64,000 nucleotides of DNA, from positions 1-64,000 of IMG/VR virus record IMGVR_UViG_3300021400_000379. The stretch is one strand, 5' to 3'. Below are positions 6,302-61,484 of the stretch, one piece after another; the first letter of the stretch is position 1; every line of letters begins with the position of its first letter. The position numbers and the translations under genes are program-made. Source of the stretch: a virus. Its lineage: Duplodnaviria; Caudoviricetes. The notes below the pieces were generated by a model. That model was given only the letters and a program-made list of their open reading frames with translations. It searched no databases and was not told the origin of the DNA.

Positions 6302-6619
6302 ATGAAGATGGTTGTATTGGGAAGCAAGGAGATCAATCTGGTGGAACAGACCGCGACAAGACTGGCGCAGTTCTACTATGACATCTCATAGCCATGGGAT
6401 TTTGACGACGGATATGACACTCATGAAGACGCGATGGAAGCGGCAAAGCTTAGTTTCGCAGAGTCTATCGTGAGCGGAGAGGTATTCGACCTTCTTGAAG
6501 AGCTGGAGAGCTACAAGGATGTTCTGGACTCTCCGAAGTCCGATGAAGACGTCAGGCTCCTTGGAGAATGGTGTGCACTGAGAACCATGCTCACCAAACT
6601 GACCAAGACCTATTTTTGA
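6302..6619 (+). CDS. hypothetical protein with in-frame TAG at codon 30 (105 aa by read-through)
   Basis: ATG 6302 one base after the previous stop; TAG 6389-6391; frame continues into track ORF 6434..6619. Confidence 0.7.
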
Positions 6620-9687: not shown

Positions 9688-10296
9688 ATGACACACGCAT
9701 TAGTTATTGTTGATATGCAGAATGACTTCATCGACGGAGCTTTTGCAAACCCTGAAGCACAGAAAATCGTACCGAAAGTGGCAGATCTCATCAGAAAATG
9801 GGACGGCCCGATTTATGTGACCCTTGATACTCACAAGGCCGAGGATTGGATGCGCACATCTTGGCATAAGGTCCTCAGGACTGAGATGGAGAAGCTCCCT
9901 GAGCATTGTATCAAATATACTCAGGGCTGGTTGCTTGCGCCCGAAATTGTCGAGGCGCTCAAGGGGAAAGATTACAAGATTATAGAGAAGGAGTCCTTCG
10001 CAGCAAGAGATTCCTTCCTGCATAGTTGCATAAATGTGTCGTCAGATATGAAATCTATCACCCTTGTCGGGCTCTGCACGGACATCTGCGTTGTATCTAA
10101 TGCATTGGAATTAGTTTCCGAGCACCCTTACACTACCGTGAGGGTTATCAGCGACTTGTGTGCGGGAACTACTCCCAAAAATCACGAAGCAGCCCTTGCA
10201 GTGATGATGTCCTGCTTGGTCGAGGTGACTGATTCTCATGAATTGCCTGAGGTATTGGATAAAGAAGTCAAAGAGAAGGAGGAGTATAATTGCTGA
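9688..10296 (+). CDS. pncA: nicotinamidase (isochorismatase-family cysteine hydrolase)
   Basis: VDMQNDF, TLDTH, HCI, K, GLCTDICV catalytic motifs; GAGGTGA RBS. Confidence 0.9.
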   Translation: MTHALVIVDMQNDFIDGAFANPEAQKIVPKVADLIRKWDGPIYVTLDTHKAEDWMRTSWHKVLRTEMEKLPEHCIKYTQGWLLAPEIVEALKGKDYKIIEKESFAARDSFLHSCINVSSDMKSITLVGLCTDICVVSNALELVSEHPYTTVRVISDLCAGTTPKNHEAALAVMMSCLVEVTDSHELPEVLDKEVKEKEEYNC

Positions 10297-11180
10297 CATT
10301 CAGAAACCTGAACGCGGGTATATGCGAACCCGTTCCAGACATCACCGTCAAATGGTACAATGACGGTACACCGAGCATACAGATACCAAGCCAATGGAAG
10401 GTATGTGGACAGCAGAACAGGGTACAGCTGGTCATCGAATGGAGGTTCGAAGCGGATATCTGGGAGAAGGAACTCTTCGTCTTGCAGTGCGTGATGGCGG
10501 AGATCGGTCGCGGAATCGGTGTGACCTTGTTCATGCCGTACGTGCCCAACGCCAGGATGGACAGGGTACCCCCAGCGAAGCGGGATGCATTCACTCTGAA
10601 GACGTTCGCCAAAATCATCAACAGTATGGGATTCGACAAGGTGGGCGTCCGTGACCCGCACTCCGACGTGACCACTGCGCTGATTGACAGGTGTGAGGCA
10701 GACAAGCCCTGGCCAGGAATAAACTGGTTGGCGGCGAATACCAACAAGCCTGTCTGGCTGTTCCCTGACGCGGGAGCGATGCACAGATACGCAGACATTA
10801 TCCCTGAGGGGCAGGACGTGACCTATGGAACGAAGGTGAGGAACTGGGATACTCAGTACATCGAAGGATACAAGCTGATGGCTGGGAACATGCTGTGCGG
10901 TCGCAACGTGGTCATCGTGGACGACATAATCTCCCACGGATACACCCTGCTGTTCCTGCTGAAGGCGCTGGAGGAGTACTGCCCGAAGTCGGTGAAGATA
11001 TATGCGACACACGTCGAGGACTCCTTTGCCGACGGAGAGCTGTATAAGCAGCTCCGTAGCGGAGAGCTGAACGCCGAGGTGTACACGAGCAACTCGATAG
11101 TTAGGAAGAGGATACAAGAGGAAACTGTGGCGATCAATCCAACGGTAATCCGTTTGAAAATAAAGGAGGAGAAGGAATGA
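10290..11180 (+). CDS. phage-type ribose-phosphate pyrophosphokinase-like protein (candidate ADPR-PP synthetase)
   Basis: MPYVPNARMDR, DPHSDV, FPDAGA, KVR, IVDDIISHGYT. Confidence 0.85.
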   Translation: MLTFRNLNAGICEPVPDITVKWYNDGTPSIQIPSQWKVCGQQNRVQLVIEWRFEADIWEKELFVLQCVMAEIGRGIGVTLFMPYVPNARMDRVPPAKRDAFTLKTFAKIINSMGFDKVGVRDPHSDVTTALIDRCEADKPWPGINWLAANTNKPVWLFPDAGAMHRYADIIPEGQDVTYGTKVRNWDTQYIEGYKLMAGNMLCGRNVVIVDDIISHGYTLLFLLKALEEYCPKSVKIYATHVEDSFADGELYKQLRSGELNAEVYTSNSIVRKRIQEETVAINPTVIRLKIKEEKE

Positions 11181-12664
11181 AATACAACCCAATGTTAGCA
11201 TGCGACTATTACAAAGCAGTTCACGCACAGATGTTACCGAAAGGTATCACCAAGTCCGTGAGCTACTTCACACCAAGGAGCTCACGCATTCCCGGATGGG
11301 ATACGGCAGTGTTCTTCGGACTGCAGGGATTCATCAAGGAATATCTCATCGAGATGTTCAACGAGAATTTCTTCGGAAGACCTAGATTCAAGGTGATGAC
11401 AGAGATCAGGGCTGTCTTTGAGAATACCTTAGGCCCTCTGGAGTCCACGAATTACAAGAATATCGAACAGCTCCACGAACTCGGTTATCTGCCGATCGAG
11501 ATCAGGGCTTTGCCTGAGGGAATCCATGTCCCGATGGGTGTTCCGATGTTCTCCATCACGAACACCCACCCTGATTTCGCATGGCTCCCCCAGTATCTGG
11601 AGTCCTTGATATCCAGTGAGATGTGGCACGGAATCATCGTCGCAACCGTGGCAGACAAGTACAGGCAGATTGTGGATAAGTGGTATGAAAAGACCGTTGA
11701 AGACCCTTCTACCGCGAAGTTCGCCCTGAGTTGTTTTGATATGAGGGGTGAAGAATCGTTCTCCGATGCAGTGAAAGCGGGAGCAGCATGGGCAACATCC
11801 TTCGTGCCTTGTGCAACGGTGGAGACCGCACGGTACCTGAACGAGTATTATTACGTATTGGGTAGATCAATCTCCGGATCTCCTTCCACCGAGCACGCAG
11901 TGATGTGTTCCAATGCAGCTGTCGACGGGGATGAGGAAACATTCGTGAAAAGGATGCTGAAGGAAATATATCCTACGCAGAACTTCTCGATTGTGCTCGA
12001 TTCCTACGACTACTGGAGGATGGTGAAGGAAGTCCTTCCCAAGCTGAAAGAAGACATCCTTGCACATGATGGGTGCATGCTGGTTCGCGGAGATTCAGGC
12101 GACCCTGTCGAGGTAGTCACCCAGACCGTATTCGCACTGTGGGATATCTTCGGAGGCACTGCCAATTCCAAGGGCTACAAGGTTCTGGACCCGCACATTA
12201 AGGCAATCTATGGGGATGGAATCACCTTGCAGAGATGTGAGGAGATTTATTCCATCTTAGAGAGCCACGGATTCGCGGCCAACAACGTTGCATTGGGTGT
12301 GGGATCATATTCGATGCAGGCGGTAAACATCGATGGAGTGCACTATCCTTTCACAAGGGATACGTTCAACATCGCGATCAAAGCCACCTACATCGAAGTG
12401 AACGGGAAACCGTACATGATTCAGAAGAGCCCCAAGGTAAACGGAGCACACGGAGAGACTACCGAGTACTTCAAGAAATCCAAGAAAGGATGCATCGGGG
12501 TGTACAACGACTATTGTGATTATTATGCAAAAGATATGCTCACATACGATGAATTCACAAAAGACCCAGACAATCAGTTGAAAACAGTATTCAAAGACGG
12601 AAAGATAACTAAACCTACCTCATTGGATACTATCAGAGATCTTCTTGACTTCTATAGGGAGTGA
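11177..12664 (+). CDS. NAMPT-fold nicotinate/nicotinamide phosphoribosyl- or ADP-ribosyl-transferase
   Basis: DYYK..H, STEHAVMC, VLDSYD, RGDSGDP, IYGDGIT, TRDT, KKSKKG. Confidence 0.9.
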   Translation: MKYNPMLACDYYKAVHAQMLPKGITKSVSYFTPRSSRIPGWDTAVFFGLQGFIKEYLIEMFNENFFGRPRFKVMTEIRAVFENTLGPLESTNYKNIEQLHELGYLPIEIRALPEGIHVPMGVPMFSITNTHPDFAWLPQYLESLISSEMWHGIIVATVADKYRQIVDKWYEKTVEDPSTAKFALSCFDMRGEESFSDAVKAGAAWATSFVPCATVETARYLNEYYYVLGRSISGSPSTEHAVMCSNAAVDGDEETFVKRMLKEIYPTQNFSIVLDSYDYWRMVKEVLPKLKEDILAHDGCMLVRGDSGDPVEVVTQTVFALWDIFGGTANSKGYKVLDPHIKAIYGDGITLQRCEEIYSILESHGFAANNVALGVGSYSMQAVNIDGVHYPFTRDTFNIAIKATYIEVNGKPYMIQKSPKVNGAHGETTEYFKKSKKGCIGVYNDYCDYYAKDMLTYDEFTKDPDNQLKTVFKDGKITKPTSLDTIRDLLDFYRE

Positions 12665-12669
12665 AATAA

Positions 12670-13524
12670 ATGGACGACTACATGAAAGATTATGACGCAG
12701 AAGCCGCAGCAGACGATCTGATCAGGTGGATCAGGGCGTTCTTCAAGGGTTCTGGAGGTAAGACCGCGGTTATAGGTATGAGCGGAGGAAAGGACTCCAC
12801 CATCGTAGCAGCCTTGTGTGCAGAAGCATTGGGAAAAGAGAATGTTGTGGGGGTGATTATGCCGAACAGAAGAATGAAAGACGAAAAGACCGCAGTGAAC
12901 GCCGCCATGAAGTATTGTGGTAAATGGATGTACAGGTCTATCGGACCTGCATATCTCCACTTCGCGATCGGTGCAGGTTACAATGAATGCACTCCCAAGA
13001 TGGATAGAGATATCTATTGGGAAGATGGCCGTCACTGGTTGGAGCTTAGGGGGTTAGACGGATATGATCCTCACCTGACTGTGACAGACACAGCAGTCAT
13101 TAACCTCCCCGCTAGATTGAGGATGTGCGCACTGTACTTCGTGGCGCAGTGTGTAGAGCACGGCAGGGTCGCGAATACCTGCAACCTCTCCGAGGACTGG
13201 GTAGGGTATGCAACCCGTTACGGAGATGGAGCAGGAGATTTCGCGCCGTTGCACGATTATACCGTGCAAGAGGTCAAGGCCATCGGACATTATTTGGGCG
13301 TTCCCAAAGAGCTGGTCGAGAAAGTACCCGACGACGGACTCTGCGGCAAGACTGACGAGGACAATCTGGGATTCACATACGAGGTGTTGGACAGGTATAT
13401 CCGCACGGGCGAGTGTGAAGATCAGGCAGTCAAAGAAAAGATAGACCAGATGCATGTGAGGAATCTGTTCAAACTTGAACCGATACCCTATTGCTACAAT
13501 GGGTGGTGGAAAAACAAGGAGTGA
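12670..13524 (+). CDS. nadE: NH3-dependent NAD+ synthetase
   Basis: GMSGGKDS PP-loop, NLPARLRM, TCNLSE, GYATRYGDG, PDDGL, DEDNLG. Confidence 0.93.
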   Translation: MDDYMKDYDAEAAADDLIRWIRAFFKGSGGKTAVIGMSGGKDSTIVAALCAEALGKENVVGVIMPNRRMKDEKTAVNAAMKYCGKWMYRSIGPAYLHFAIGAGYNECTPKMDRDIYWEDGRHWLELRGLDGYDPHLTVTDTAVINLPARLRMCALYFVAQCVEHGRVANTCNLSEDWVGYATRYGDGAGDFAPLHDYTVQEVKAIGHYLGVPKELVEKVPDDGLCGKTDEDNLGFTYEVLDRYIRTGECEDQAVKEKIDQMHVRNLFKLEPIPYCYNGWWKNKE

Positions 13525-13529
13525 TACAT

Positions 13530-13760
13530 ATGAGTGTCGATAAGGCTTGGATTGATTAGTACCAGCAGGCGAAGGATAAATTGTGTAACGCGCTGTCTGA
13601 ATTTGAGTGGCAAGTCCTGGATCAAGTTCCAGATGCATTTTCAGGACATACTGATGAGATGTTTTCTGAAATTTCCAGACTTAGGGTGCAGTTGAGGGTA
13701 TATACCGATTTCCTCTGGGCTGCATACAACCTTGATAAGAAATTCGGAGATGTAGAATAA
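13530..13760 (+). CDS. hypothetical protein with in-frame TAG at codon 10 (76 aa by read-through)
   Basis: AAGGAGTGA RBS, ATG 13530, TAG 13557-13559, open to TAA 13758-13760; fills the gap after nadE. Confidence 0.75.
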
Positions 13761-15652: not shown

Positions 15653-15810
15653 CGACAATCAAGGTGACTGCTGAACTTGTATTCGAAACCGAAGAAGAGT
15701 TCAATAAATTCATGGATGACTGGAATTGTTGCGACGACGAGGAATGCGTATAGATTCCTGCAGGATGGATAAACAAAGTGAACTGGAGAGAATTACACAG
15801 GGAAGAATAA
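15649..15810 (+). CDS. small protein with in-frame TAG at codon 35 (53 aa by read-through)
   Basis: ATGA overlap; TAG 15751-15753; TAA 15808-15810 two bases before the next ATG. Confidence 0.55.
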
Positions 15811-24371: not shown

Positions 24372-24607
24372 CCGAGCCCATAGCTGTAATCGCCACCTGC
24401 ATCAGGTCGTATAATGATAAGCTGGAGCCGATATGGCTCGCAAAGTTACTGAAACTGTAGAAGAAGACGTATGGCCGTACACTGATCTGTACTGCTCTGG
24501 ACCAACTGTCCGATTTATGCCTTTTAGAGGGTGTATGGATGAAACTAGATGGGCGGTGGATCCGGACTCTGAGAGTACCTGAGGACAACCCATGGGGGAC
24601 ACAATAA
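24368..24607 (+). CDS. winged-helix protein with in-frame TAG at codon 31 (79 aa by read-through)
   Basis: GTGA overlap, GGAGG RBS, TAG 24458-24460, ALDQLSDLCLLEGVWMKLDGRWIR wHTH downstream, TAA directly before the terminator. Confidence 0.75.
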
Positions 24608-41219: not shown

Positions 41220-41294
41220 GCCTCTATGGCCTAACAGAATGGCACTCGCCCTGTAAGCGAGCGATTGTGGGTGCAAGTCCCATTGGAGGCTCCA
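41220..41294 (+). tRNA. tRNA-Thr(UGU), atypical (C33, TGCAAGT T-loop)
   Basis: Acceptor GCCTCTA/TGGAGGC, U73, CCA; anticodon arm CTCGC-CCTGTAA-GCGAG. Confidence 0.8.
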
Positions 41295-41295
41295 T

Positions 41296-41371
41296 GTCCA
41301 GGTAACTCAGCTGGTAGAGTGTTCGGCTGTTAACCGAACTGTCCAAGGTTCAAGTCCTTGCCTGGACGCCA
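41296..41371 (+). tRNA. tRNA-Asn(GUU)
   Basis: Canonical cloverleaf, loop CTGTTAA, CCA. Confidence 0.95.
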
Positions 41372-41373
41372 AT

Positions 41374-41449
41374 AAGGGGGTAGGGAAGAGGTCATCCCAC
41401 TTGGCTCATAACCAAGAGATCGGTGGTTCAAGTCCATCCCCCCTTACCA
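41374..41449 (+). tRNA. tRNA-Met(CAU), archaeal initiator-like
   Basis: A1-U72, GGGA/TCCC D-stem, loop CTCATAA, CCA. Confidence 0.85.
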
Positions 41450-41454
41450 CTAAA

Positions 41455-41505
41455 CACAGACAGGTGATCAAACTGCAACTGGGAACTAGGTGCCTGTCTG
41501 TGACC
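41455..41505 (+). ncRNA. minihelix-like hairpin between tRNAs
   Basis: CACAGACAGG/CCTGTCTGTG 10-bp stem followed by ACC. Confidence 0.45.
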
Positions 41506-41513
41506 TTTAATCT

Positions 41514-41589
41514 GGGTTCGTGGTGTAGCTTGGCATCACCGTTGCCCTGGGAGCAACAGACTGCGGTTCAAATCCGCACGAACCCACCA
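41514..41589 (+). tRNA. tRNA-Pro(UGG) with C33
   Basis: GGGTTCG/CGAACCC; arm GTTGC-CCTGGGA-GCAAC; CCA. Confidence 0.9.
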
Positions 41590-41591
41590 AT

Positions 41592-41669
41592 GGACGTATA
41601 GCATAGTCGGTCCAATGCGCCGTTCTTATAAAGCGGAGATCGCCCGTTCGAATCGGGTTACGTCCACCA
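41592..41669 (+). tRNA. tRNA-Ile(UAU)
   Basis: GGACGTA/TACGTCC; arm CCGTT-CTTATAA-AGCGG; A73, CCA. Confidence 0.9.
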
Positions 41670-41671
41670 AT

Positions 41672-41749
41672 GGGCCTGTATCTCAGACAGGTTTGAGAAC
41701 CCGCCTTTTAAGCGGGTAGACAGGGGTTCGAATCCCCTCAGGCCCACCA
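41672..41749 (+). tRNA. tRNA-Lys(UUU)
   Basis: Arm CCCGC-CTTTTAA-GCGGG; CCA. Confidence 0.93.
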
Positions 41750-41754
41750 TAAAC

Positions 41755-41827
41755 AGTCCCGTAGTGTAGCGGTCAAGCACCTCGGCCTTTGGAGCCGATA
41801 ACCCTGGTTCGAATCCGGGCGGGACTA
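41755..41827 (+). tRNA. tRNA-Gln(UUG)
   Basis: Archaeal A1-U72 acceptor AGTCCCG/CGGGACT; loop CTTTGGA. Confidence 0.93.
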
Positions 41828-41832
41828 CCTAT

Positions 41833-41908
41833 GCCATCATAGGACAGTGACGAAACCGCCCGCTTCGTAAACGGGAGAGCGTGGGTTAGAAACCCACTGA
41901 TGGCACCA
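41833..41908 (+). tRNA. degenerate tRNA, probably Thr(CGU)
   Basis: GCCATCA/TGATGGC plus ACCA; loop TTCGTAA with C31-A39 mismatch; T-loop TTAGAAA; weak D-arm. Confidence 0.6.
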
Positions 41909-41909
41909 A

Positions 41910-41994
41910 GGGGAGATAGTCTAGCCTGGTAAGGCGGCAGTCTTGAAAACTGCAGCGACTCGGTCGCATGGGGGTTCAAATCCCTCTCTCCCCG
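41910..41994 (+). tRNA. tRNA-Ser(UGA)
   Basis: Long variable arm GCGAC-TCG-GTCGC; loop CTTGAAA; G73. Confidence 0.93.
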
Positions 41995-42010
41995 CTAATT
42001 TTAAAATTTT

Positions 42011-50929: not shown

Positions 50930-53344
50930 TCAGCTATTATTGAGCTGCGAGACAGTATTGGCCAAATCGAGCTGTTTGCTGATACCGAATGAGTATTTTG
51001 TACGCCCAGAGGGGTATTCTCTTGAATATTTTGACAGTGCCAGCTTCTGCGGATAGTATCTGCTGGGGAATTTCAGCCCCATCGCGGATACTGCGAGGTC
51101 CTGTTCGATATCGGTGAACTGTTTGACCGAGCTTACCGCGGGGAACAGCGCAGACCAGTAAGAATCAGGGCTGGTCTCGCCGTATGACCCGGAATTACGC
51201 TCGTTCGCGGTGAATGAGACCGATGTTCTGGTCTCTCCCCAATAGGCGAGCACCATATACAGCACCTTTCTGGCATAATACTCGGGCAGGACTGCGAAAT
51301 ACTGTGTCAGGTCAAGAGTATACAGCCCAGGGCCTTCCCCGATATCCTTGATGGACTGCTCAGCCATGTCGCGGATGCTCGCATACTCGGGATTTTCCGA
51401 AGATACGGAGTATTTTACGCATGGGCCGTCTCCCGAAAGGGGAGAGATCCATTCTCCGATGATAGGGTCGCTCAGGTCGTCCGCTTTATACCTGCCGAAC
51501 TAGATCGTACGGGTCTTGACGGCCTTTTCCAGGCTCGTATATACGTTATATTTCACCGCGACCGTGTTATATGTCGTGGTAGAACCCTGTGCGTCCTGAG
51601 ATACAGTCCCGTAAACCCTTCCCATCAGACGGTCATATGTACGTTCGCTGTGCAACTCGACGGAATCCAGAGTAGCCCTCCAGTCCTCGGGGCTCATTTC
51701 AATTGCCTGGATGTTTCCCATCGCCTCGTCCCACCCGAATGATGGGTTGCTGCCCATATCAAGACCTGATCTCACGATGAGCCTGTTGAACGCTGTCCTC
51801 TTACGCTCGTCAGACCAGTCCTCGGATGCGGTACTGGGTATGTTCTCTGGCACTTCATCTGCCAATTTGGTATAATCTATGATATAAGCCCTGCTGTTCG
51901 CGAAGAATATGCGTGCGTTGCATATCATCGCGCATATCTGGAGGGTCGTCCAGATGTTCGCCCCCTTGATTATGGGGATGAACTCATCATGTGCGCTACC
52001 GAGCACGTCTAGAGTCATATCCTTCACGACGTCCTCATCGGTATGGATTGGTGCAGACCTGACCGCATTCACGGAAATCTTCGACACGTCCACGTTGGAT
52101 ATGATCTGGTAAGGCAAGTAATAGTACCGTGAGTACAGCCCCGTACCGATGATATCCAGGATCATCGACAGCGGATCGGTCCAAGTGATGTTTGACGTGA
52201 ATTTCATACCGCGGATTTCGCTGATTCCGCAATATGCGATCATATCGTAGGAATTATCCCGCAGGGCACACTCAGTCACGATATATTCCCCCCTGCCTAC
52301 GGCATTTATCTGCAGCTTGCTCTCACCGGGCTGGATTATCGCGATTACCTTATCAGTCTGCATGTTCACATTCCCAGCCAGTTCGGGATATGTTCTCATG
52401 AATGCCCTTTTGGATAATTTTAGGGACACGTGCTCAAAAGGCTCCTCCAGTCCGCCGGTCATTGTATATGAGCTCACCAAGTCAAGACCCATATACCCTC
52501 CGTGCGAGGGGTCTGGTTGACCCTGTCTCGACCCGATGGTCAACGCGTATTCGGGAGTCTGTATCAGCACCCCGTTCAACTTCTTGACCGCCCTGACCTT
52601 GATGGACGTGTCCCTGGTGAAATACCACTCGTTATACTCGTTATACGCATTGTAACAGCTTGCGGTATTCAGATTGTCATAGATGGGGATATATCTGAGG
52701 GCGGGGTTCTTCTCATATAGCTCCCTAGGAATTGCCTCATACTCTCCGTCTATGTGAGTGAAGAGCACACTATCCTCGTGCCCCTCGGACAGTTTCTCGG
52801 TCAGCCTGCCGCCTACCACTACGACCATGGACCCCGTGAGGTATTCCGAGTCTCCGCAGTTCAAGTCGATCTCCACTTCTTGTACGAAGATGTTCACCGC
52901 ATGGCTGGAAGGTAACATCAGAGTTTGAGGGATGAATGTCTCTGTATCCTTTGTGATGTCCTCTGCATTCTTGGTATTGATGAACATGGTGTAACCGTCG
53001 GTCTTGATCTGCCACCTGTTTGCCAAGGACATGAGCGCGTCGCACCATTTGGCATTAGTCCATTTCCAAGAGGTCTTATCATAGTCGTCATCGTACACAT
53101 AGGTCATATATGTGCCGTTAGGCAACTTTTTCAAGGGGTTCTTGCGGGCAAATGTGAATGTATAACTGTTCGAGGTGTTGGATTCCAGCGCGTATGTCGA
53201 ATCTGTAGGCAGATTAGGGATGGGGATTGCGGTAATAGCCTTGTTCAGTGTGTCTGTAATCCCTGTCACTATCCCCAGATCATACATCGTTCCTGAATTC
53301 GTGCTGAAGCCCGTCCTTATCTGGATTAGTCCATATTCATCCAT
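50930..53344 (-). CDS. tail or baseplate protein, 804 aa by read-through of TAG at codon 615
   Basis: Track ORFs 51500..53368 and 50930..51367 are in frame and joined by 44 stop-free codons after the TAG at 51500-51502. Confidence 0.75.
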
Positions 53345-53348
53345 ATAT

Positions 53349-56300
53349 TCACCCGTTGTTAATGACATCTCCGAGGAATTCTATAATTATTACTCCGTCT
53401 GCTCCAGCTCCACCAGGCGTGGTATATGTGCAAGCCCCATAATCTAAGGCCTTGTGAACATAATTCACTGTATAATTCACAGTGTTAGTCACAACGCCTA
53501 GTGCCGCCTTCCATGTGTTTATATTGAACGCATTAATTATGGCGCCCCCTGGGGAAAATGCATGCATCTGTTGTTCTATCGGTACTTTGACTACCTCCAC
53601 CATTTCTTTGATGTTCAGGTCATAATCCTGCCACCTGAGCTTAGAGCATCCGCCTCCGCCGTACCTTGCGTTGCCTGCAGAGGAGGTTACAGTACATGTC
53701 GGGTCCTTGGTAGAGGTGGCTGTTTGACTTAAGATGCACCCCCCGAGACTTCTGATGAGCTTCGCCTGAGCTTGCCTGCCGGAGAATTCTGCGTCGCCTG
53801 TCGCAGACCTGCCAGAAACGACCCAGATATTGGAGCTGGCCCGATAATGCCTATTAATGTTCGCCGCAGCTCCCCCAGAACTCGGATATACAACAGGATT
53901 GTTGTTCGGGTATGCCCCGTATCCCATACCTCCCCTGATAGAGTCGGGATCAGCCTCGCCCGTAGAGCTGTTCTTCGATAATTCTCCATCTGTGGGGGAC
54001 CCCTGGGACCCTTTGATGGCCTCTCCCGAGTCCCATCTGAGGTCCACATCCTTGCTGGTGGAGTTCTCCCCTCCGTTATAGGCTCCTGTACCTCTTTTAT
54101 CTCTGCCACCGGCCTCTCCGCCTCCGGCACTGACGATTAATGCACTGCCATATCTGATTTCAGAGCTCTCACCATTGATTTCCGACGCTCCGCCCGCACC
54201 CAAGGTCAACGAGAATTCCCTGATACCCTCTTTGGAGATATGCACGGTCCTGGCAACGGTAAATCCGCTTCCGCCGCCCCCGCCGACCATGAATGACGCG
54301 AGCTTGAACCTTATAATGTCATTCCCGCCAGTGATTTTCTCACCTGTGGCATAGCTGGAGCCGCCACCTCCGCCTCCGCCTACGGCGATACATTTAGCAT
54401 ATGCGTGGGTGTTTCCCTCCAATATCGTATTCCACAAGGTATCATGAGGGATTCTGACCTCGTAGGATCCGTTCACGGGGGCCTCGAAGACTACTACACC
54501 CAAGACCCGCCTGTATTTTATCGTGAACACCTGAGTGGAATCGATGTCTTGACCCTCCTCCTTGATGGTTTGCAGAGTAATCGGAAGCTCATCCCCGGGA
54601 TAGGCATACCTTGTCACGGTCTTCTTCTCCATCACGGTAGACCCTTCCGACACGGGCGCACTCTCTTCTACGGTATATGCCCAGCATGCGGGCTCAGTAC
54701 CCTCTTCTTGGAGCACGTCCTCAGGGAACTGGGGGGCGATATAGACCCCATTGTAGGTTTCAAGCGTGATTCCTTTAACTTGTCCATCACGGTTGACATA
54801 TCTGAATACGATCGACTGCTTCTTGATTGCGTTCCTTCCGCGCATGGATGCGACGGTAAACTGGAGGGTAAGTGTTACGCCTGCCCTGTTATATGGATAC
54901 TGGAGCGGTGCAGAGAGGAACACGTTCTTATCGATCTTGGGGTACCCGTTATAGGATATGAGCGGGTCGAGGATGAGATTGTACCCTCCGCTCCTTTCCT
55001 CCTTGACGTCGTAGTTGGAATTCTGCCACTGGTCGAAGAAGGTCTTGACATATTTCACCCATTTGTTCGTCGACCAATCCGCGGGATTATGGCTCCTGTC
55101 ATTAGGTTTGGCAGGTGGGGTGCGGGTGACGGTGATTATGCATGTCTCCAAATTACCCAGATCTATGATATAGTTGAACTCCGAGGATTTTGTGAGCATC
55201 GGCGATTGATTCAGCTGCACCCTCACCTTTCTGCGGACGTTGGTGATTGCCAGGTTAGGCTGGGTCTCCGTGGACAGGTATAACTTCTGCATATCCTCCT
55301 TGTGTTTCGTAGGATATTTGGTCACTACACACAGCGGGGCAAGGGGCAGTTCATCCAATATCTTCAGCAGGAGCACATTGTGCTTCTCCTTCGGACTCTC
55401 GCCTTGTACCGCCTCTGGGTATGTGACGAAATCCACCGCATAGAGTCCTTCATCAGCCCTTTCGGACACGAATGTTGCCCCGAATGTCTCCACCGACACA
55501 TACTGAGTCGTAGCACCCTGCACTCTTGCCTCGAAGTGTTGGGTCTGTTTGCCCGTGGCCGCCAGCCATGACGCATATATCTCGTTGAATATCCAGTATC
55601 CGCTGGAATCCGTCACGAGCTTATACGTTCTGATCTCGGCAGGCTTCTGGGGGAGCCTCATATCCAGAGTATGCGCATATTTGTTAGATAATACAATCCA
55701 GTTTCCTGTATTGTCCATGTCCGAGCGGACCTGGGTATAACTTGCGTCCAATATGCTGACTCCCTTGGTCTCGGTAAGGGATGGCGTGAGCAGGGTATAA
55801 TCTGGGTTGGTCGGGTCCACATATATCCTGACTGTCTCTCCAGGAGTAAGTGTCAGGGTGACCTGTGTCTCACCAGATCCATTGATTGGTATCAACTCCG
55901 ACGAAGGATCGGACGGGTTGCTGAACCTGTACATGAGTCCAGTAACGTAACCCACTCCCGCCTGGAATATCACTTTCGGGAACTGGGAGAAGGGAATCGT
56001 CACATCCAGCGACTCGCCGGGAATCACAAACGACTTGGCCCATAACGGATTCGCAATAGCCATCACATACAGCTCCACGGTCGCTTGGTTCCCGTAGGGG
56101 ATCGCCAGGTCGGTGACATGAGAGATAACATTGTCCTGGGTATTGAACGCGATTGCTCTCACGGTGTCGGTAGTCTGGTCAATCCAACTGACCGCGGGAG
56201 TGATATCCAAGTACTCGTAGGTCTCATGGTCCTCGGTCTCCCACGCTACCGGGCCGATACAGCTATATTCTGTGCTGGCCCAAGCCCATTCAAGGTTCTT

Positions 56301-59300
56301 TGGAGACCATACCGCGTGTACAACGATTGCTCCAGCTCTAGCAGGAACGCTATACCCTACGACTTCACCCGCTTCCTCGGTCGGAACGATGCCCTCTCCC
56401 TCCCATGCGGACCATGTGCGGGTCTCCATCAGCGGGACGATATTCGTCAATTGAATGGTCTGCCCCGTATAATCGGTATAATACCTGCGGAGATTCGCGG
56501 GAGTCGTACCCGTCGGCCAAACGCCCCCGTCCAAGTCGTAGACAAGGTCTGTGGTCCATGCCGCATATAGCGTCTTGCTCTCGGTAGCATTTGCGGCCAG
56601 TGTGACAGCGGACTCCAAAGCCCCGTTCTGGGTAAGAGTCCATCCTCCGTGTATATGCTGACTGTCTCCGCTGGCGGCTCTGTATCCGCCGAGTTGCCAA
56701 GTTCTATCCATCACGGTCTCGGTAGATCTCCTGATCCAATTTATCCTAGCGGGAAGGATGACGTTGTTCCCCGCGGTGGCGTCGGTGTTCTCGAACGAGA
56801 TGGTAGATAGTTTGAACTGTATCTGAGAAGATGGGACGACTCCGCTGGAGGCGTTTATATTAATCGGCTTGAAGGTGAATGAATATGTGCCAGCGTCACA
56901 TTCGCTGAAATCCAGTTCTACCGTAGATACATTGGAATTACGGGTAATCCTGACGGGGACCGATCCCGTAGACGCCTGCGAATCGAGCACTATGGTCGGA
57001 TTGGCCGCGTCCGTCGGGGTCGCAATATATCTGATGGTCACCTTGTCTGGGCCGATTTCCACTCCGCTTTCCGTAAGGGTCGTGACGAACTTACCCCAGG
57101 TGGCATAGAAAACCACCTGGCTATTCTCCTCAGGATATGCACCCAACGCGTTGAGATATGTGCCGTAATAGTCTATTCCTGCGGAATATTCAGGAGTGCC
57201 GTCGATTGTCCTTGCAAATCCCATGAACGAGTTGTGTCCGCCATCCTCCAGGGCCACGATCTGTTCGCTGGTAGCGAAATCAGAGATGTCCAACACATTC
57301 GACTCGCCATAGGTCACAGGCATGATATAAGTCTCCGGCGCAGTGGCGTCGTTAGCACCTTTGTTGACCAGGAGTCTATATGTGGAATGCCTGCACTCCG
57401 CGAACAGACGGATGGTTGCGGAGCCTCCGGGTATAGAGCTCGCCTGGACTGTCGCGACCAATCCATCGTTCTCGGGGGTGTACACGATTGGTCCTGTGGA
57501 AAGATTAACTCCGTCTGGGTCATATGTCTGCCCAAGATATATCTTCGAGACATGCCACTTCGCTTGGGTCTCGGCAGACACATATTCCTGATCCGTCGGA
57601 ATTCCGAGCTTGGACACGGCGTTAATGGTGATGGTGTTTCCGAAGTCCGCTACCCAAGGTCCGAAATATCTAGGCTTGTAATTGTCCTCAGGGATTCCGT
57701 AGTACAGCATCAGCGTATACTGCGTGGTCCAGTCTGCGACATATTTAGGTGTGGCCGTTGTAGCTGCGAATGTATTGAATGCCACAGGGGTCTCTGCACG
57801 GCCACCTGCGTCAATCTCATGCGCAGGAGTATCAATGTCATCCCATCCGTTGAATACTCCTCCTCCCGTAGGCGTGAGGGTAGTCAGCGAGTACCTGACC
57901 TCGAAGGTGTATCCAGTCATGGCGGTACCGCTCATCGAAGGTACGAACCAATAATCCGCGGAGGGGGTCTGGCTCGGAGTAGTGTTATCGACACGAGAGT
58001 AATCTCCCGCATCTATCGGGCCCACCACGGTCTTGACCGGTTCTCCATCCTCTACGAATACCACATTTTGGACAGATGATGTGTAGGAGGTGTAGTAGGA
58101 TACTTCTACCGTGAACTTGGGAGAATATATACTGTAGACTGTTCCAGAGACCGTGGTCGTCAGCGTGACTTTATCCTTGGAATATGCCTGCACCTCCAGA
58201 TTAGACGCGCTCCACCCTCTGAAGGTGTATCCCTCTGTCGGACGGATGGCGTTCAGCATAGAGGTCAGAGCGACGGGTGACTGTCCCGCAGTGGTGCAGG
58301 TCCATACTCCCCCGACCTTCTCTATCGTCCAGATAGTCCCAGAATTTTGAATGGTCCAAGTGATTCCTGTGTCAGCTTCATGCTTCCTGGGCAGGGCGGA
58401 GGGGGCGATGTACGCGCCATTCTCCCTGATCGTCGCCTCGAAAGCTCCTACCAGAGTCTTCTTCATGGACATCGTGCATCCCTGTGCGATCAGGAAGGAG
58501 ATCGTACGGGTGTACATCCTCTCCCTCTCTACTGTCAGAACGATCTTCTGTCCGGGTTTGACCGCGATTGTAGTGTAAGTCCCTGTTGCAGAATAGATAA
58601 CGGAGCTCCCGCTAATGACCCAGCCGTCGAAATACCAGCCGTCCACCTGCGTACTGCGCCCGCTCTCGTCCACATATGTGCCCGCTTCCAATACAGGTAC
58701 ATTGCTGATGATCTGGTGTTGCATGTTGCTGCCGATATACCCTGTGAGAGTTATCGTCGTCTCCTCGGGTGTGTCATTGGGTGCCCAGCTCTCTCCTCCT
58801 CCGTTGCGGTTGGGATCCAATACATATGAGACTGTGCCCTGTCCCTTCCAGACCGCGTAATAGATATAGTCTGCCCCAATGTCTACGGATGAGCCAGCAG
58901 CATGGATTACGCCCGTATCATCGATTGTAGGGCCGTATCCGATGAAGTTTCCGTTCTCGAACAAAGCCGCCGTAGTCCAGCCGTGATAGGTGTATTGAAG
59001 CCCGTCTTTGGTCCAGCCCGGAATTGCGGCTGGCGCTGTTCCAGAGAGGTGTGTCGTAGCTTTCACCGTTGAATACGCCGTCCAAGCGGGAGACCATACG
59101 GTCACGGTGGAGAATGTGCTGGAATTCTCTCCAGCGGGGCGACGATCGTCATAGAACTTAGAGTCGTATCTACGCTTATATTGTTCCGAACGGACATACT
59201 GGAGGTCCAATACCGTGTTTGCAGTGAATGTATACTGGGTGCCAAAGGAATATTCCGTAGACCCGCCTTGCACTTTGTATTTATTCGGCGTGAGTGTGGT

Positions 59301-61484
59301 CTTGGCCTGGGCGGTGAACGCATCCTCTGTGGCGTATGCGACGCTTGTCTTGACGATCTCGGTATATCCGCTGGAGGGGATGGTATAGTGCCATTGGACC
59401 CTGTGCGTCAAGCCCACGGTAGTTGAGGTATATCCGCCTACGGATAGGGTCTCGGATTCTGTCGCATGATGTGCGGGGACGATGGTAACGGCATCTGGGT
59501 CATACGCTCTGAGCGTGAGTGTGACCTTTAAGAACGGTACCGCATACAAAGTCAGGTTCTGCATATCCGTGATGTTCAGTATCGTCCTCTTCCCGGACTC
59601 ATATGCGAACGCCCAGTATTTCGCGGTATCCTCCGCGTCTATGGTATAGCTGGTCTCAGTACCAACGGTCGTACCCTGTGTCCAAGTAGGGATTGTGGTC
59701 CTGGAGGTTTGGGTTGCAGAGAGGTGCCACCCCTCATAGGTGTCTGTCGAGGTATCTGCTGGGTCATATGCAGAGACCCATTCGATTATCCAGTCATTCG
59801 CGTCTCCAAACCCGCTTACCGTGTCCTTATATGCGTTGCTGGCGGTATCATTCTTCTTCTTATACAGTGTCAGGGTGTGCGGGACGAGTGTATACGTTGC
59901 GGTCGCAGTAACACTCTGCGCGGGCATAGTGTTATTAGAAGAAGTCCAAGTATAAGTGTGACCGTAGGCGTATGCTACCGTATGATTCGGATCCATTCCC
60001 GCGCTGGCAATGTTTGTGGATATATTGGACCCGTAGGGGAATTTCTTGGTCTTGGATCCGGACACATTCACGCGCCTATAGACCTTTGTCACGTCCAACG
60101 ACCATTGTATGGTAAGATCATACCAATCCAGCCTGTATTTGGCATAAAGTGTGATGTTTCCGTATGCTCCGCCTGTCGCCGTCGAGATCTGTGCCAAGGT
60201 TATAGTGAACGACGCGGGTTTTGAGGAATCCGACTCCCCGGACGCAGTATCATCCGATACCTGTGTGAAGCCCCACCCTGTACATGTATATCCCGTGCGC
60301 CCCGTTGCTGCATAAATAGTCAAACTAGCGGTCTCTACAGTATAGTACGTCGGATTTCCAGTAGATGCTGTACCTTGCCCCGCATTGTATGTAATCGTAT
60401 ACTTATGCGGAGTCCAGTAAGCATATAGCGTGAGATTTTGATGTTCTGACGCAGGGGTGATTGTGGTGACTTTATTAGCGAAGCTATCCTCCCGATACCA
60501 TCCCTGGAAATCATAATGAGCCCTCCGTGTGGCTGCTTGTGTCTCAAGATCGATCTGGGAGGATTCTACCGTGTACGTTATTGGTGATACCGCAGAACCA
60601 CTGTTGGTCTGGAAGGTGATTGTATATGTTATAGGGGTCCATTTCGCCCAAATCTCTACGTCACCTATTGACCCCGCAGGAATTCCTGTTATCTGGGTCG
60701 TACCTTGTGCGTCGGTGTACCACCCCGAGAAGTTGTAATAACTTCTCGAAGGGTCGGCAAAGGTGATTGCACTGGACTCAACCGTATACTTTAACGGATT
60801 CGCTATCGCGTTGATCCCAGGAGAGACATGGTATGTGATGGTGTATTCAATCACACCCCATTTCGCGTATAATGTCAGATTACGGGCGGTCTCCGAGGGA
60901 GTGATCGCAGTCAATGGGTCTCCCGAATACTCCGCATTGTCATACCATCCCGCAAAGGTGTACCCCCTCCTTGTGGATATTGCACTGGTTGCAAGATCAA
61001 TCTGGGAGGATTCTACCGTGTACGTTATTGGTGATACCGCAGATCCGTTCACGGTATCGAACGATAGAGTATATTGTATCGGTGTCCAGGTCGCGGTAAG
61101 GGTCATTCCCGTTTCCGAGACTGTATCCTCGGAAGCTTGCCACGCCAGAGAATATCCTGTCTTAGTTACGGTCTGGGCAAAGTCGGCCAACACGTCTGCT
61201 TTGGCCATTCCAAGCGGAAAATCTTTGGTATATCCTCCTTGTATAGGGGTCCATCCTGCGGGAGCGGAGGGCACCGTCCCCCCACTGAGAAGTACTCTGG
61301 CAAATCCCGCGCCGGTTACAGTGTATTGGTCGGGAACAAGTACAAGCGAATAACTCTCGCGCTCCGTAGTATTCGGAATATACAATAATTCCTCTACTGG
61401 GGAGAAGACGAGTGAGTAACTGGTACGCTCAGTGGTATTCGGGAGCGAATCCCCCGCGTTAATATATTCTGTCAGTATCTCCAC
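53349..61484 (-). CDS. giant tail adhesin (2711 aa): Listeria-Bacteroides (InlB B-type) repeats, tail domain, Gly-rich C-terminal domain
   Basis: Repeated R.GY.F.GWY...TLYAKW units; AVGGGGGGGS...GGGGGSG...GADGVIIIE. Confidence 0.8.
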   Translation of the reverse strand: MEILTEYINAGDSLPNTTERTSYSLVFSPVEELLYIPNTTERESYSLVLVPDQYTVTGAGFARVLLSGGTVPSAPAGWTPIQGGYTKDFPLGMAKADVLADFAQTVTKTGYSLAWQASEDTVSETGMTLTATWTPIQYTLSFDTVNGSAVSPITYTVESSQIDLATSAISTRRGYTFAGWYDNAEYSGDPLTAITPSETARNLTLYAKWGVIEYTITYHVSPGINAIANPLKYTVESSAITFADPSRSYYNFSGWYTDAQGTTQITGIPAGSIGDVEIWAKWTPITYTITFQTNSGSAVSPITYTVESSQIDLETQAATRRAHYDFQGWYREDSFANKVTTITPASEHQNLTLYAYWTPHKYTITYNAGQGTASTGNPTYYTVETASLTIYAATGRTGYTCTGWGFTQVSDDTASGESDSSKPASFTITLAQISTATGGAYGNITLYAKYRLDWYDLTIQWSLDVTKVYRRVNVSGSKTKKFPYGSNISTNIASAGMDPNHTVAYAYGHTYTWTSSNNTMPAQSVTATATYTLVPHTLTLYKKKNDTASNAYKDTVSGFGDANDWIIEWVSAYDPADTSTDTYEGWHLSATQTSRTTIPTWTQGTTVGTETSYTIDAEDTAKYWAFAYESGKRTILNITDMQNLTLYAVPFLKVTLTLRAYDPDAVTIVPAHHATESETLSVGGYTSTTVGLTHRVQWHYTIPSSGYTEIVKTSVAYATEDAFTAQAKTTLTPNKYKVQGGSTEYSFGTQYTFTANTVLDLQYVRSEQYKRRYDSKFYDDRRPAGENSSTFSTVTVWSPAWTAYSTVKATTHLSGTAPAAIPGWTKDGLQYTYHGWTTAALFENGNFIGYGPTIDDTGVIHAAGSSVDIGADYIYYAVWKGQGTVSYVLDPNRNGGGESWAPNDTPEETTITLTGYIGSNMQHQIISNVPVLEAGTYVDESGRSTQVDGWYFDGWVISGSSVIYSATGTYTTIAVKPGQKIVLTVERERMYTRTISFLIAQGCTMSMKKTLVGAFEATIRENGAYIAPSALPRKHEADTGITWTIQNSGTIWTIEKVGGVWTCTTAGQSPVALTSMLNAIRPTEGYTFRGWSASNLEVQAYSKDKVTLTTTVSGTVYSIYSPKFTVEVSYYTSYTSSVQNVVFVEDGEPVKTVVGPIDAGDYSRVDNTTPSQTPSADYWFVPSMSGTAMTGYTFEVRYSLTTLTPTGGGVFNGWDDIDTPAHEIDAGGRAETPVAFNTFAATTATPKYVADWTTQYTLMLYYGIPEDNYKPRYFGPWVADFGNTITINAVSKLGIPTDQEYVSAETQAKWHVSKIYLGQTYDPDGVNLSTGPIVYTPENDGLVATVQASSIPGGSATIRLFAECRHSTYRLLVNKGANDATAPETYIMPVTYGESNVLDISDFATSEQIVALEDGGHNSFMGFARTIDGTPEYSAGIDYYGTYLNALGAYPEENSQVVFYATWGKFVTTLTESGVEIGPDKVTIRYIATPTDAANPTIVLDSQASTGSVPVRITRNSNVSTVELDFSECDAGTYSFTFKPININASSGVVPSSQIQFKLSTISFENTDATAGNNVILPARINWIRRSTETVMDRTWQLGGYRAASGDSQHIHGGWTLTQNGALESAVTLAANATESKTLYAAWTTDLVYDLDGGVWPTGTTPANLRRYYTDYTGQTIQLTNIVPLMETRTWSAWEGEGIVPTEEAGEVVGYSVPARAGAIVVHAVWSPKNLEWAWASTEYSCIGPVAWETEDHETYEYLDITPAVSWIDQTTDTVRAIAFNTQDNVISHVTDLAIPYGNQATVELYVMAIANPLWAKSFVIPGESLDVTIPFSQFPKVIFQAGVGYVTGLMYRFSNPSDPSSELIPINGSGETQVTLTLTPGETVRIYVDPTNPDYTLLTPSLTETKGVSILDASYTQVRSDMDNTGNWIVLSNKYAHTLDMRLPQKPAEIRTYKLVTDSSGYWIFNEIYASWLAATGKQTQHFEARVQGATTQYVSVETFGATFVSERADEGLYAVDFVTYPEAVQGESPKEKHNVLLLKILDELPLAPLCVVTKYPTKHKEDMQKLYLSTETQPNLAITNVRRKVRVQLNQSPMLTKSSEFNYIIDLGNLETCIITVTRTPPAKPNDRSHNPADWSTNKWVKYVKTFFDQWQNSNYDVKEERSGGYNLILDPLISYNGYPKIDKNVFLSAPLQYPYNRAGVTLTLQFTVASMRGRNAIKKQSIVFRYVNRDGQVKGITLETYNGVYIAPQFPEDVLQEEGTEPACWAYTVEESAPVSEGSTVMEKKTVTRYAYPGDELPITLQTIKEEGQDIDSTQVFTIKYRRVLGVVVFEAPVNGSYEVRIPHDTLWNTILEGNTHAYAKCIAVGGGGGGGSSYATGEKITGGNDIIRFKLASFMVGGGGGSGFTVARTVHISKEGIREFSLTLGAGGASEINGESSEIRYGSALIVSAGGGEAGGRDKRGTGAYNGGENSTSKDVDLRWDSGEAIKGSQGSPTDGELSKNSSTGEADPDSIRGGMGYGAYPNNNPVVYPSSGGAAANINRHYRASSNIWVVSGRSATGDAEFSGRQAQAKLIRSLGGCILSQTATSTKDPTCTVTSSAGNARYGGGGCSKLRWQDYDLNIKEMVEVVKVPIEQQMHAFSPGGAIINAFNINTWKAALGVVTNTVNYTVNYVHKALDYGACTYTTPGGAGADGVIIIEFLGDVINNG

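Follow-up and report, generated by a model that had tools for sequence, protein, structure and literature searches.

Does an amber codon in the middle of a viral tail gene end the protein, or is it read as an amino acid? The question is raised by a minus-strand gene in the window, a stretch of 64,000 nucleotides at the beginning of a viral contig that measures 99,638 bp and has terminal repeats of 107 bp. The original prediction held that the gene forms one continuous frame of 804 aa interrupted by a single TAG and that its full-length product needs amber decoding. It further proposed that virion completion could be tied to the availability of pyrrolysine (Pyl) in the host and, with it, to methylamine metabolism, or that partial read-through could yield two isoforms of 614 and 804 aa.

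Layout of the gene and its homologs

Translation of the minus strand from 53368 to 50930 gives a single frame with one internal stop only, whereas plus-strand translation of 50930–53344 yields no ORF. The junction described in the original prediction (KAVKTRTI-TAG-FGRYKADD...IRD-MAEQSIK) is exact on the minus strand, and both product lengths were right. The gene likely starts at ATG 53344 (MDEYGL...), which is preceded by a GGGTGA Shine-Dalgarno (SD) match, lies 5 nt past the stop codon that ends the gene upstream and agrees with the starts of homologous proteins. The structure model described below is numbered from ATG 53368 (812 residues, with the hub TAG at residue 623). Gene callers using genetic code 11 end the gene at the TAG, and the public gene call P0001 (614 aa) is 100% identical to the part before it. 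The downstream Met at 51367 had been pointed out as having no clear ribosome binding site. It does have an SD match of 3 nt only, but this is poor evidence, since a match of at least 4 nt is reached at only 52% of confident gene starts in this virus.

Table 1 Features of the viral genome that bear on the decoding of TAG (positions in the window).
Feature	Position	Strand	Remark
Putative baseplate hub gene, complete	50930..53344	-	804 codons including one in-frame TAG
Terminal TGA of the hub gene	50932..50930	-	
In-frame TAG of the hub gene	51500..51502	-	codon 615 from ATG 53344
Part before the TAG, 614 codons	51503..53344	-	"whole gene" of code-11 callers
Linker of 44 codons, from TAG to internal Met	51368..51499	-	coding, no intergenic spacer
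C-terminal 145 codons of the hub gene	50930..51367	-	separate small gene according to code-11 callers
Giant protein of 2711 aa in tape-measure position, upstream of the hub	53349..61484	-	order relative to the hub conserved in all relatives
Cluster of nine viral tRNA genes	41220..41995	+	ARAGORN
In-frame TAG candidate, gene ~6302..6619	6389..6391	+	coding score 0.22 upstream, 0.31 downstream
In-frame TAG candidate	13557..13559	+	extension of 66 codons, 16 nt short of the next gene's start
In-frame TAG candidate	15751..15753	+	18-codon extension
In-frame TAG candidate	24458..24460	+	48-codon extension

Homologs speak for one gene. An indexed search returned five homologs of 844–882 aa, each covering 98–99% of the read-through product in one ORF, and both halves also match one 641-aa ORF of Caudoviricetes sp. 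vir335. An exhaustive HMMER search collected 182 family members, most of which match both hub halves. A closer relative (P0002, 642 aa) stops where the hub stops at its TAG, and the sole stand-alone match to the C-terminal part (P0011, 146 aa, 74% identical) is a gene call located downstream of P0002. P0011 is the relative's counterpart of the same false gene call. The stretch is thus a single gene, neither broken nor made of two genes. The name of one relative's contig suggests a rumen metagenome.

The relative carries the amber codon itself. In the three contigs that encode P0002 (L001, L002 and L003, from three samples and independently assembled), TAG stands at the identical codon (…TRTI-TAG-FGRY…), and the frame continues past it to the end of the protein. 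The parts before the TAG share ~56% protein identity between our virus and this closest relative (L001) and differ by 170 synonymous codon changes. Of the six codons that precede the TAG, four carry such changes, as do the third and fifth codons after it, while the TAG is kept. Retention of the same codon as TAG in a ~56%-identical relative, in three assemblies, argues for more than chance.

The linker that would serve as a spacer between two genes evolves as protein. It comprises 44 codons in both viruses, with zero indels and zero stops between them, and the differences are distributed over the codon positions as 16/16/27, that is, with an excess at third positions. The two viruses have the opening motif FGRY...P-I-I-x-E-W-I in common, of which EWI is also present in distant fused homologs. 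In addition, the extension of the hub behind the TAG has a coding score of 0.21, compared with -0.13 for extensions of at least 4 codons, and -0.16 for those of at least 15 codons, behind TGA and TAA. Conservation of this linker and the occurrence of homologs as one ORF had been named as points on which the amber-decoding claim could fail, and on both it stands.

When the stop is entered as X in the alignment, the TAG column corresponds to a conserved Trp in the next-closest homologs (P0003–P0006), in the context RT[LI]-W-[FY]G. As a Trp occupies this column, a TGG to TAG transition is the simplest origin of the hub TAG, and it probably occurred in the common ancestor of our virus and its closest relative. 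A scan of IMG/VR with the hub alignment gave no confirmed relatives, and a scan of genome contigs gave one distant match only, on a contig binned into a Dialister hominis metagenome-assembled genome. The match was rejected as evidence of a bacterial host: the contig has TAG-free stops (TGA 10, TAA 1, TAG 0) and the same order of a giant protein followed by the hub, and it may be mis-binned.

Predicted fold of the hub

The original prediction called the gene a probably essential tail gene, and both its predicted fold and its position specify this as a structural baseplate hub. A structure model of the read-through product reached a pLDDT of 81 and a pTM of 0.85, and residues ~250–800 confidently model as a baseplate hub fold of the gp27/Mu gp44 type. 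The N-terminal part is predicted to contain a baseplate/tube-initiator-like domain, followed by the gp27/gp44-type hub. Solved hub chains align up to model residue ~796–810 with an identity of only 6–14%, and the predicted fold covers a complete reference chain. Neither half nor the fused protein gave a match in Pfam (E<=0.1) or PHROG (0.01), and the assignment to the gp27/gp44 fold class is accordingly one by modelled structure and gene position, not by sequence profile. The gene lies in the tail module directly downstream of the gene in tape-measure position, and the order of giant gene and hub is the same in L001, L008, L009 and L010.

Structure prediction across the junction, which had been proposed as a check, places the TAG within a beta-strand (616–627 in model numbering) of one hub fold. 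A product truncated at the TAG would, according to the model, end in mid-strand and be devoid of the C-terminal third of the hub fold. A short isoform is therefore unlikely to be useful.

Compared with gp27, Mu gp44 and VgrG-type hubs (N-terminal hub of Tal, T5 pb3, HFTV1 tail tip), the present hub differs in being interrupted by TAG. It also has an extra N-terminal domain of ~190 aa, which is a separate gene in the relative L004, as well as large insertions, and no gp5-like spike follows it.

TAG usage, decoder and host affiliation

Across the whole viral genome, a codon-score-based set of 110 genes ends in 87 TGA, 20 TAA and 3 TAG, and the three TAG-ended genes are the hub and two small ORFs. 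For comparison, TAG accounts for 16% of off-frame stop triplets inside genes. TAG ends no gene among 30 on the contigs of the relatives, the same hub site excepted. TAG is thus avoided as a terminator genome-wide, and the hub TAG is not special to the hub gene. The avoidance of TAG stops in all relatives points to a property of the host.

Eight TAG-terminated ORFs were examined, at 6389, 13557, 15751 and 24458 on the plus strand and at 51502, 85344, 91782 and 92224 on the minus strand. In all eight, the frame stays open past the TAG and closes at the next gene or shortly ahead of it. The extensions have a median of ~45 codons, compared with 11 after TGA or TAA (one-sided Mann-Whitney p=0.010), and are more coding-like (p=0.002), with seven of eight scoring positive against a null mean of -0.13. 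None of the eight produces the large out-of-frame overlaps on read-through that define Category 4. The affected genes comprise several early and late genes and have no common theme. At 92224 (genome position), a Cys-rich gene has two continuous homologs (91% and 85% identical) with Tyr at the TAG, which makes it, by sequence comparison, a second internal TAG validated by homologs. A homolog search with the gene at 6389 returned only a truncated downstream gene call on a 92%-identical contig, which was uninformative, and tblastn of the seven TAG-containing candidates other than the hub against vir335 gave no informative matches. Altogether, homologs support two of the eight sites, and the other six are identified by frame continuity and coding statistics only. 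Trp and Tyr at the aligned positions indicate that the residue inserted at TAG need not be Gln.

A decoder of viral origin was not detected: the nine tRNAs that ARAGORN identified, run on the window as well as on the full 99,638-bp genome, include none with a CUA anticodon. The 120 nt located 3' of the hub TAG have MFE z-scores of 0.18 in the window and -0.11 in L001, with predicted structures that differ between the two, and no PYLIS-like or read-through-stimulating element was found after the hub TAG. With neither a viral CUA tRNA nor an RNA structure, the host must supply the decoder.

The virus is archaeal and is affiliated with Methanomassiliicoccales viruses. Among 50,697 GenBank phage records, the PCNA-type clamp that it encodes matches nothing but PCNAs of haloarchaeal viruses; in the same records, capsid and hub match only vir335 (BK063680.1), whose recorded host, Methanomassiliicoccales, is an order-level label only. 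Our virus and vir335 have at least 32 genes in common, arranged in a similar order, with identities of 37% for the capsid, 41% for the portal and 50% for the terminase. Stops are TGA-dominated and TAG-poor in both viruses, and among the CDSs deposited for vir335, 95 terminate with TGA, 9 with TAA and 3 with TAG, all three of the latter being tiny ORFs. The vir335 hub homolog, labelled 'tail tape measure protein', differs from the present hub in that it has no internal TAG and none of the large insertions, and the two are only ~27–31% identical. We take vir335 to be described by Medvedeva et al. (2023, Nat Microbiol). The link to a host is an indirect one, drawn from the PCNA and the order-level vir335 label, and the host genus is what we infer rather than observe. 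As the virus groups with Methanomassiliicoccales viruses, pyrrolysine would be the most plausible residue at the hub TAG, in line with the host Pyl decoding proposed in the original prediction.

Several observations on Pyl-decoding archaea are relevant here. In 'Ca. Methanomethylophilus alvus', TAG accounts for 1.6% and TAA for 17% of stops (Borrel et al. 2014, PMC4153887). Kivenson et al. proposed a "Genetic Code 34", in which every TAG is read as pyrrolysine, for Methanomethylophilus, Methanogranum, Methanoplasma, Methanimicrococcus and some Methanosarcinaceae (10.1101/2024.09.30.615893). Proteomics confirmed Pyl at TAG in M. alvi (genome-wide) and in M. burtonii; no PYLIS requirement was found, and the authors argue that such organisms come to express their Pyl machinery constitutively (10.1101/2024.09.30.615893). 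Release factor RF1 was found in all Pyl archaea examined (10.1101/2024.09.30.615893), and in Methanosarcina acetivorans the decoding of UAG is ambiguous, with expression of the Pyl machinery following demand (PMC12626013). Viruses are not mentioned in the Code 34 preprint (10.1101/2024.09.30.615893). Full-text searches of the literature turned up no description of pyrrolysine, or of amber codons read as sense, in viruses of archaea; the presumed vir335 paper lies outside their coverage.

Probable decoding of the hub TAG and its consequences

Since the virus, like its probable host, hardly ever ends genes in TAG, the hub TAG almost certainly encodes an amino acid. Probably, Pyl-tRNA(Pyl) of the host reads UAG straight through and gives a single 804-residue hub with one pyrrolysine, and several other genes are read likewise. 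The mechanism would start from a virus of Methanomassiliicoccales-type methanogenic archaea, for which the hub TAG is an ordinary, if rare, sense codon. Its host would use TAG little or never as a stop, in a manner similar to 'Genetic Code 34', and decoding would fall to the host's own apparatus for reading amber, with Pyl-tRNA(Pyl) as the most probable candidate. A TGG codon would have turned into TAG in the ancestor shared with the closest relative and have been retained since, so that pyrrolysine would be inserted where relatives have Trp; several other viral genes would be decoded in the same way. As the virus carries no suppressor tRNA, completion of the hub, and hence of infectious particles, would depend on a TAG-decoding host. 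Decoding is presumably efficient. Some termination at the hub TAG may nevertheless occur, given the presence of RF1 in all Pyl archaea examined and the ambiguous UAG of M. acetivorans.

The need for amber decoding put forward in the original prediction is borne out by the continuous homologs, the conservation of the linker as protein and the position of the TAG inside the hub fold. It is very improbable that the TAG is a true stop, either between two genes of 614 and 145 aa that are separated by a 132-nt spacer or in a pseudogene, or that it stems from an assembly error. Code-11 callers do yield these two genes in the virus and its relative (P0001, P0002 and P0011), but the 'split' forms are only split by the same TAG, whereas all more distant homologs are fused. 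The spacer shows neither stop nor indel across a long divergence, and the break would fall inside a beta-strand of one predicted fold. Also, the internal ATG has no SD sequence, although this is weak evidence, and the recurrence of the TAG in independent assemblies speaks against an assembly error. Insertion of a standard amino acid, either by a non-Pyl suppressor of the TAG-to-Gln type or by near-cognate read-through, is improbable as well. Phages with recoded stop codons are known (cited within 10.1101/2024.09.30.615893), and a standard residue would fit the Trp aligned with the hub TAG and the Tyr aligned with that at 92224. Against it, the 99.6-kb genome holds no suppressor tRNA, this is an archaeal virus that clusters with one of Methanomassiliicoccales, and the avoidance of TAG stops extends to all relatives. 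For Gln in particular, the aligned residues at the two comparable sites are not Gln, and TAG is rare (8 sites), whereas in recoded phages it is abundant in late genes.

A further alternative retains Pyl but makes its use ambiguous or regulated: UAG would have a dual meaning, products of 614 and 804 aa would both arise, and virion yield would follow the supply of Pyl-tRNA and thereby methylamine metabolism. The tuning of Pyl expression to demand in M. acetivorans (PMC12626013) and the occurrence of RF1 in all Pyl archaea examined (10.1101/2024.09.30.615893) favor such a scheme. It also suits a virus without its own decoder, and the host genus, and hence the decoding regime, leaves room for either mode. 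We nevertheless consider it unlikely. TAG lies in several early and late genes that share no theme, no structure or context is conserved 3' of the hub TAG, and the truncated product is predicted to end in a beta-strand with a third of the hub fold absent. Moreover, the near-total avoidance of TAG terminators in the virus and its relatives fits a host in which TAG is essentially always sense. With a codon that is avoided as a terminator genome-wide and found inside several other genes, the idea that a special hub TAG ties virion completion to methylamine metabolism went unsupported. Gating of assembly by this metabolism and the production of two isoforms are possible but lack support; the missing stimulatory RNA structure, the truncation in mid-strand and the constitutive Pyl machinery argued for Code 34 hosts speak against them.

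Sense decoding of TAG by host Pyl-tRNA(Pyl) would, in our best reading, make the hub a viral counterpart of the internal-TAG ('Category 1') genes described for Pyl archaea and Code 34 hosts (10.1101/2024.09.30.615893; PMC4153887). In both cases the TAG lies in a conserved gene that has homology to either side of it, is almost never used as a gene end, entails no large out-of-frame overlaps and is accompanied by no PYLIS-like element. The stop profile (TGA ~79%, TAA ~18%, TAG 3% or less) is similar to that of 'Ca. M. alvus', and drift from a neighbouring codon (TGG or TAY) is the probable origin of the TAG. In contrast to Category 1 genes, the gene resides in a viral genome that has no pylT/pylS of its own and borrows the code of its host, and the affected protein is a structural protein of the virion. 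TAG-to-Gln phages (crAss-like, Lak and others) resemble our virus in having TAG in essential late genes that are fragmented by standard gene calling. However, the hosts of those phages are bacteria, a suppressor tRNA is usually encoded in the phage genome, at times together with release-factor genes, and in-frame TAGs are numerous and stand at Gln positions, while the archaeal virus described here has no suppressor tRNA and ~8 TAGs, with Trp or Tyr aligned.

These results have a practical side. Calling with code 11 splits the hub into "genes" of 614 and 145 aa and truncates several others, and public archaeal-virus catalogues are affected, as P0001, P0002 and P0011 are such calls. A near-absence of TAG stops combined with internal TAGs could be a signature by which uncultivated viruses are assigned to gut and rumen methanogens that decode Pyl. 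Furthermore, the peptide around ...TRTI-[TAG]-FGR... offers a concrete target with which pyrrolysine might be detected in a virus particle for the first time.

The use of amber as a sense codon, so far described for cellular genomes, would herewith extend to a virus and to a structural protein of its virion. In hindsight, a sense TAG is to be expected there, since viruses use the code of their hosts. One speculative extension, to which we give only a small chance, is that the conserved hub TAG and the other TAG-containing genes act as a host-code lock and possibly as a rheostat, with Pyl as a building block of the virion. If so, infectious particles would be formed only where the cell has a working pyrrolysine system, and, were UAG ambiguous in addition, virion output would scale with the supply of Pyl-tRNA and so with growth on methylamines. 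Since the virus comes without a decoder, the finding implies that the genetic code itself may act as a barrier to its host range.

Internal and terminal TAG codons

Beyond the hub gene, an interrupted frame was also found in a gene for a 122-aa Cys-rich protein (genome positions 92458..92090). Two homologs, 91% and 85% identical to this protein, run uninterrupted across the TAG site, and both carry Tyr at the aligned residue. On the basis of this alignment, the site is a second internal TAG validated by homologs. In the related virus Caudoviricetes sp. vir335, which has an assigned Methanomassiliicoccales host, only three CDSs end in TAG, all of them tiny ORFs that may reflect the same read-through artefact.

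Features within and outside the window (L005 and L006, stretches of the same viral genome beyond the window; L007, stretch of the vir335 genome; L004, contig stretch with a distant hub homolog; L006 gene loci as listed)
Feature	Location	Strand	Remark
NAD-related block, four genes	window 9688-13524	+	
tRNA cluster, nine genes	window 41220-41995	+	
Giant protein in tape-measure position	window 53349-61484	-	2711 aa
In-frame TAG, Cys-rich gene	genome 92222-92224 = L006:10222-10224	-	beyond window; continuous homologs
PCNA-like clamp	L006:4344-5054	-	
RtcB RNA ligase	L006:6642-7901	-	
ThyX thymidylate synthase	L006:11608-12789	-	
vir335 hub homolog	L007 6010-7935 = BK063680.1 37501-39426		GenBank label 'tail tape measure protein'
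vir335 TAG-terminated CDS	BK063680.1 61026-61121		31 aa
vir335 TAG-terminated CDS	BK063680.1 65865-66137		90 aa
vir335 TAG-terminated CDS	BK063680.1 70097-70294		65 aa
Contig stretch with distant hub homolog	L004, CAVICI010000002.1, 71474-90731		hub homolog 28% identity; MAG contig binned to bacterium Dialister hominis

Hub homologs and the neighbouring giant protein

The vir335 homolog is more likely a baseplate hub than a tape measure, because it is homologous to the present hub protein, whose predicted model shows a baseplate-hub fold. In the relatives, the counterparts of the giant protein comprise 2447-3095 aa and contain Flg_new (PF09479) repeats, which are unusual in a tape measure.

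The distant homolog consists of two ORFs of 217 and 555 aa, split at the boundary between the N-domain and the hub, and the gene order (giant protein, then hub) matches that of the present virus. The contig has a GC content of 53%, and its genes end in TGA (10) or TAA (1), with none ending in TAG. It may be a viral contig mis-binned to D. hominis.

Accessory gene content

The tRNA cluster comprises Thr-UGU, Asn, Met, Pro-UGG, Ile-UAU, Lys-UUU, Gln-UUG, Thr-CGU and Ser-UGA, most of which target A/U-ending codons; this bias would fit a virus of 49% GC in a GC-richer host. The presence of tRNA-Ile(UAU) in the cluster is unusual. In addition to the tabulated L006 genes, L005 encodes a YqaJ-like exonuclease, an SNF2 helicase, a D5-type primase-helicase and a ParB-like protein. 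The NAD-related block, consisting of an isochorismatase/nicotinamidase-like protein, a phosphoribosyltransferase-domain protein, a NAPRTase/NAMPT-family enzyme and an NAD synthase, could serve NAD salvage or counter-defence.
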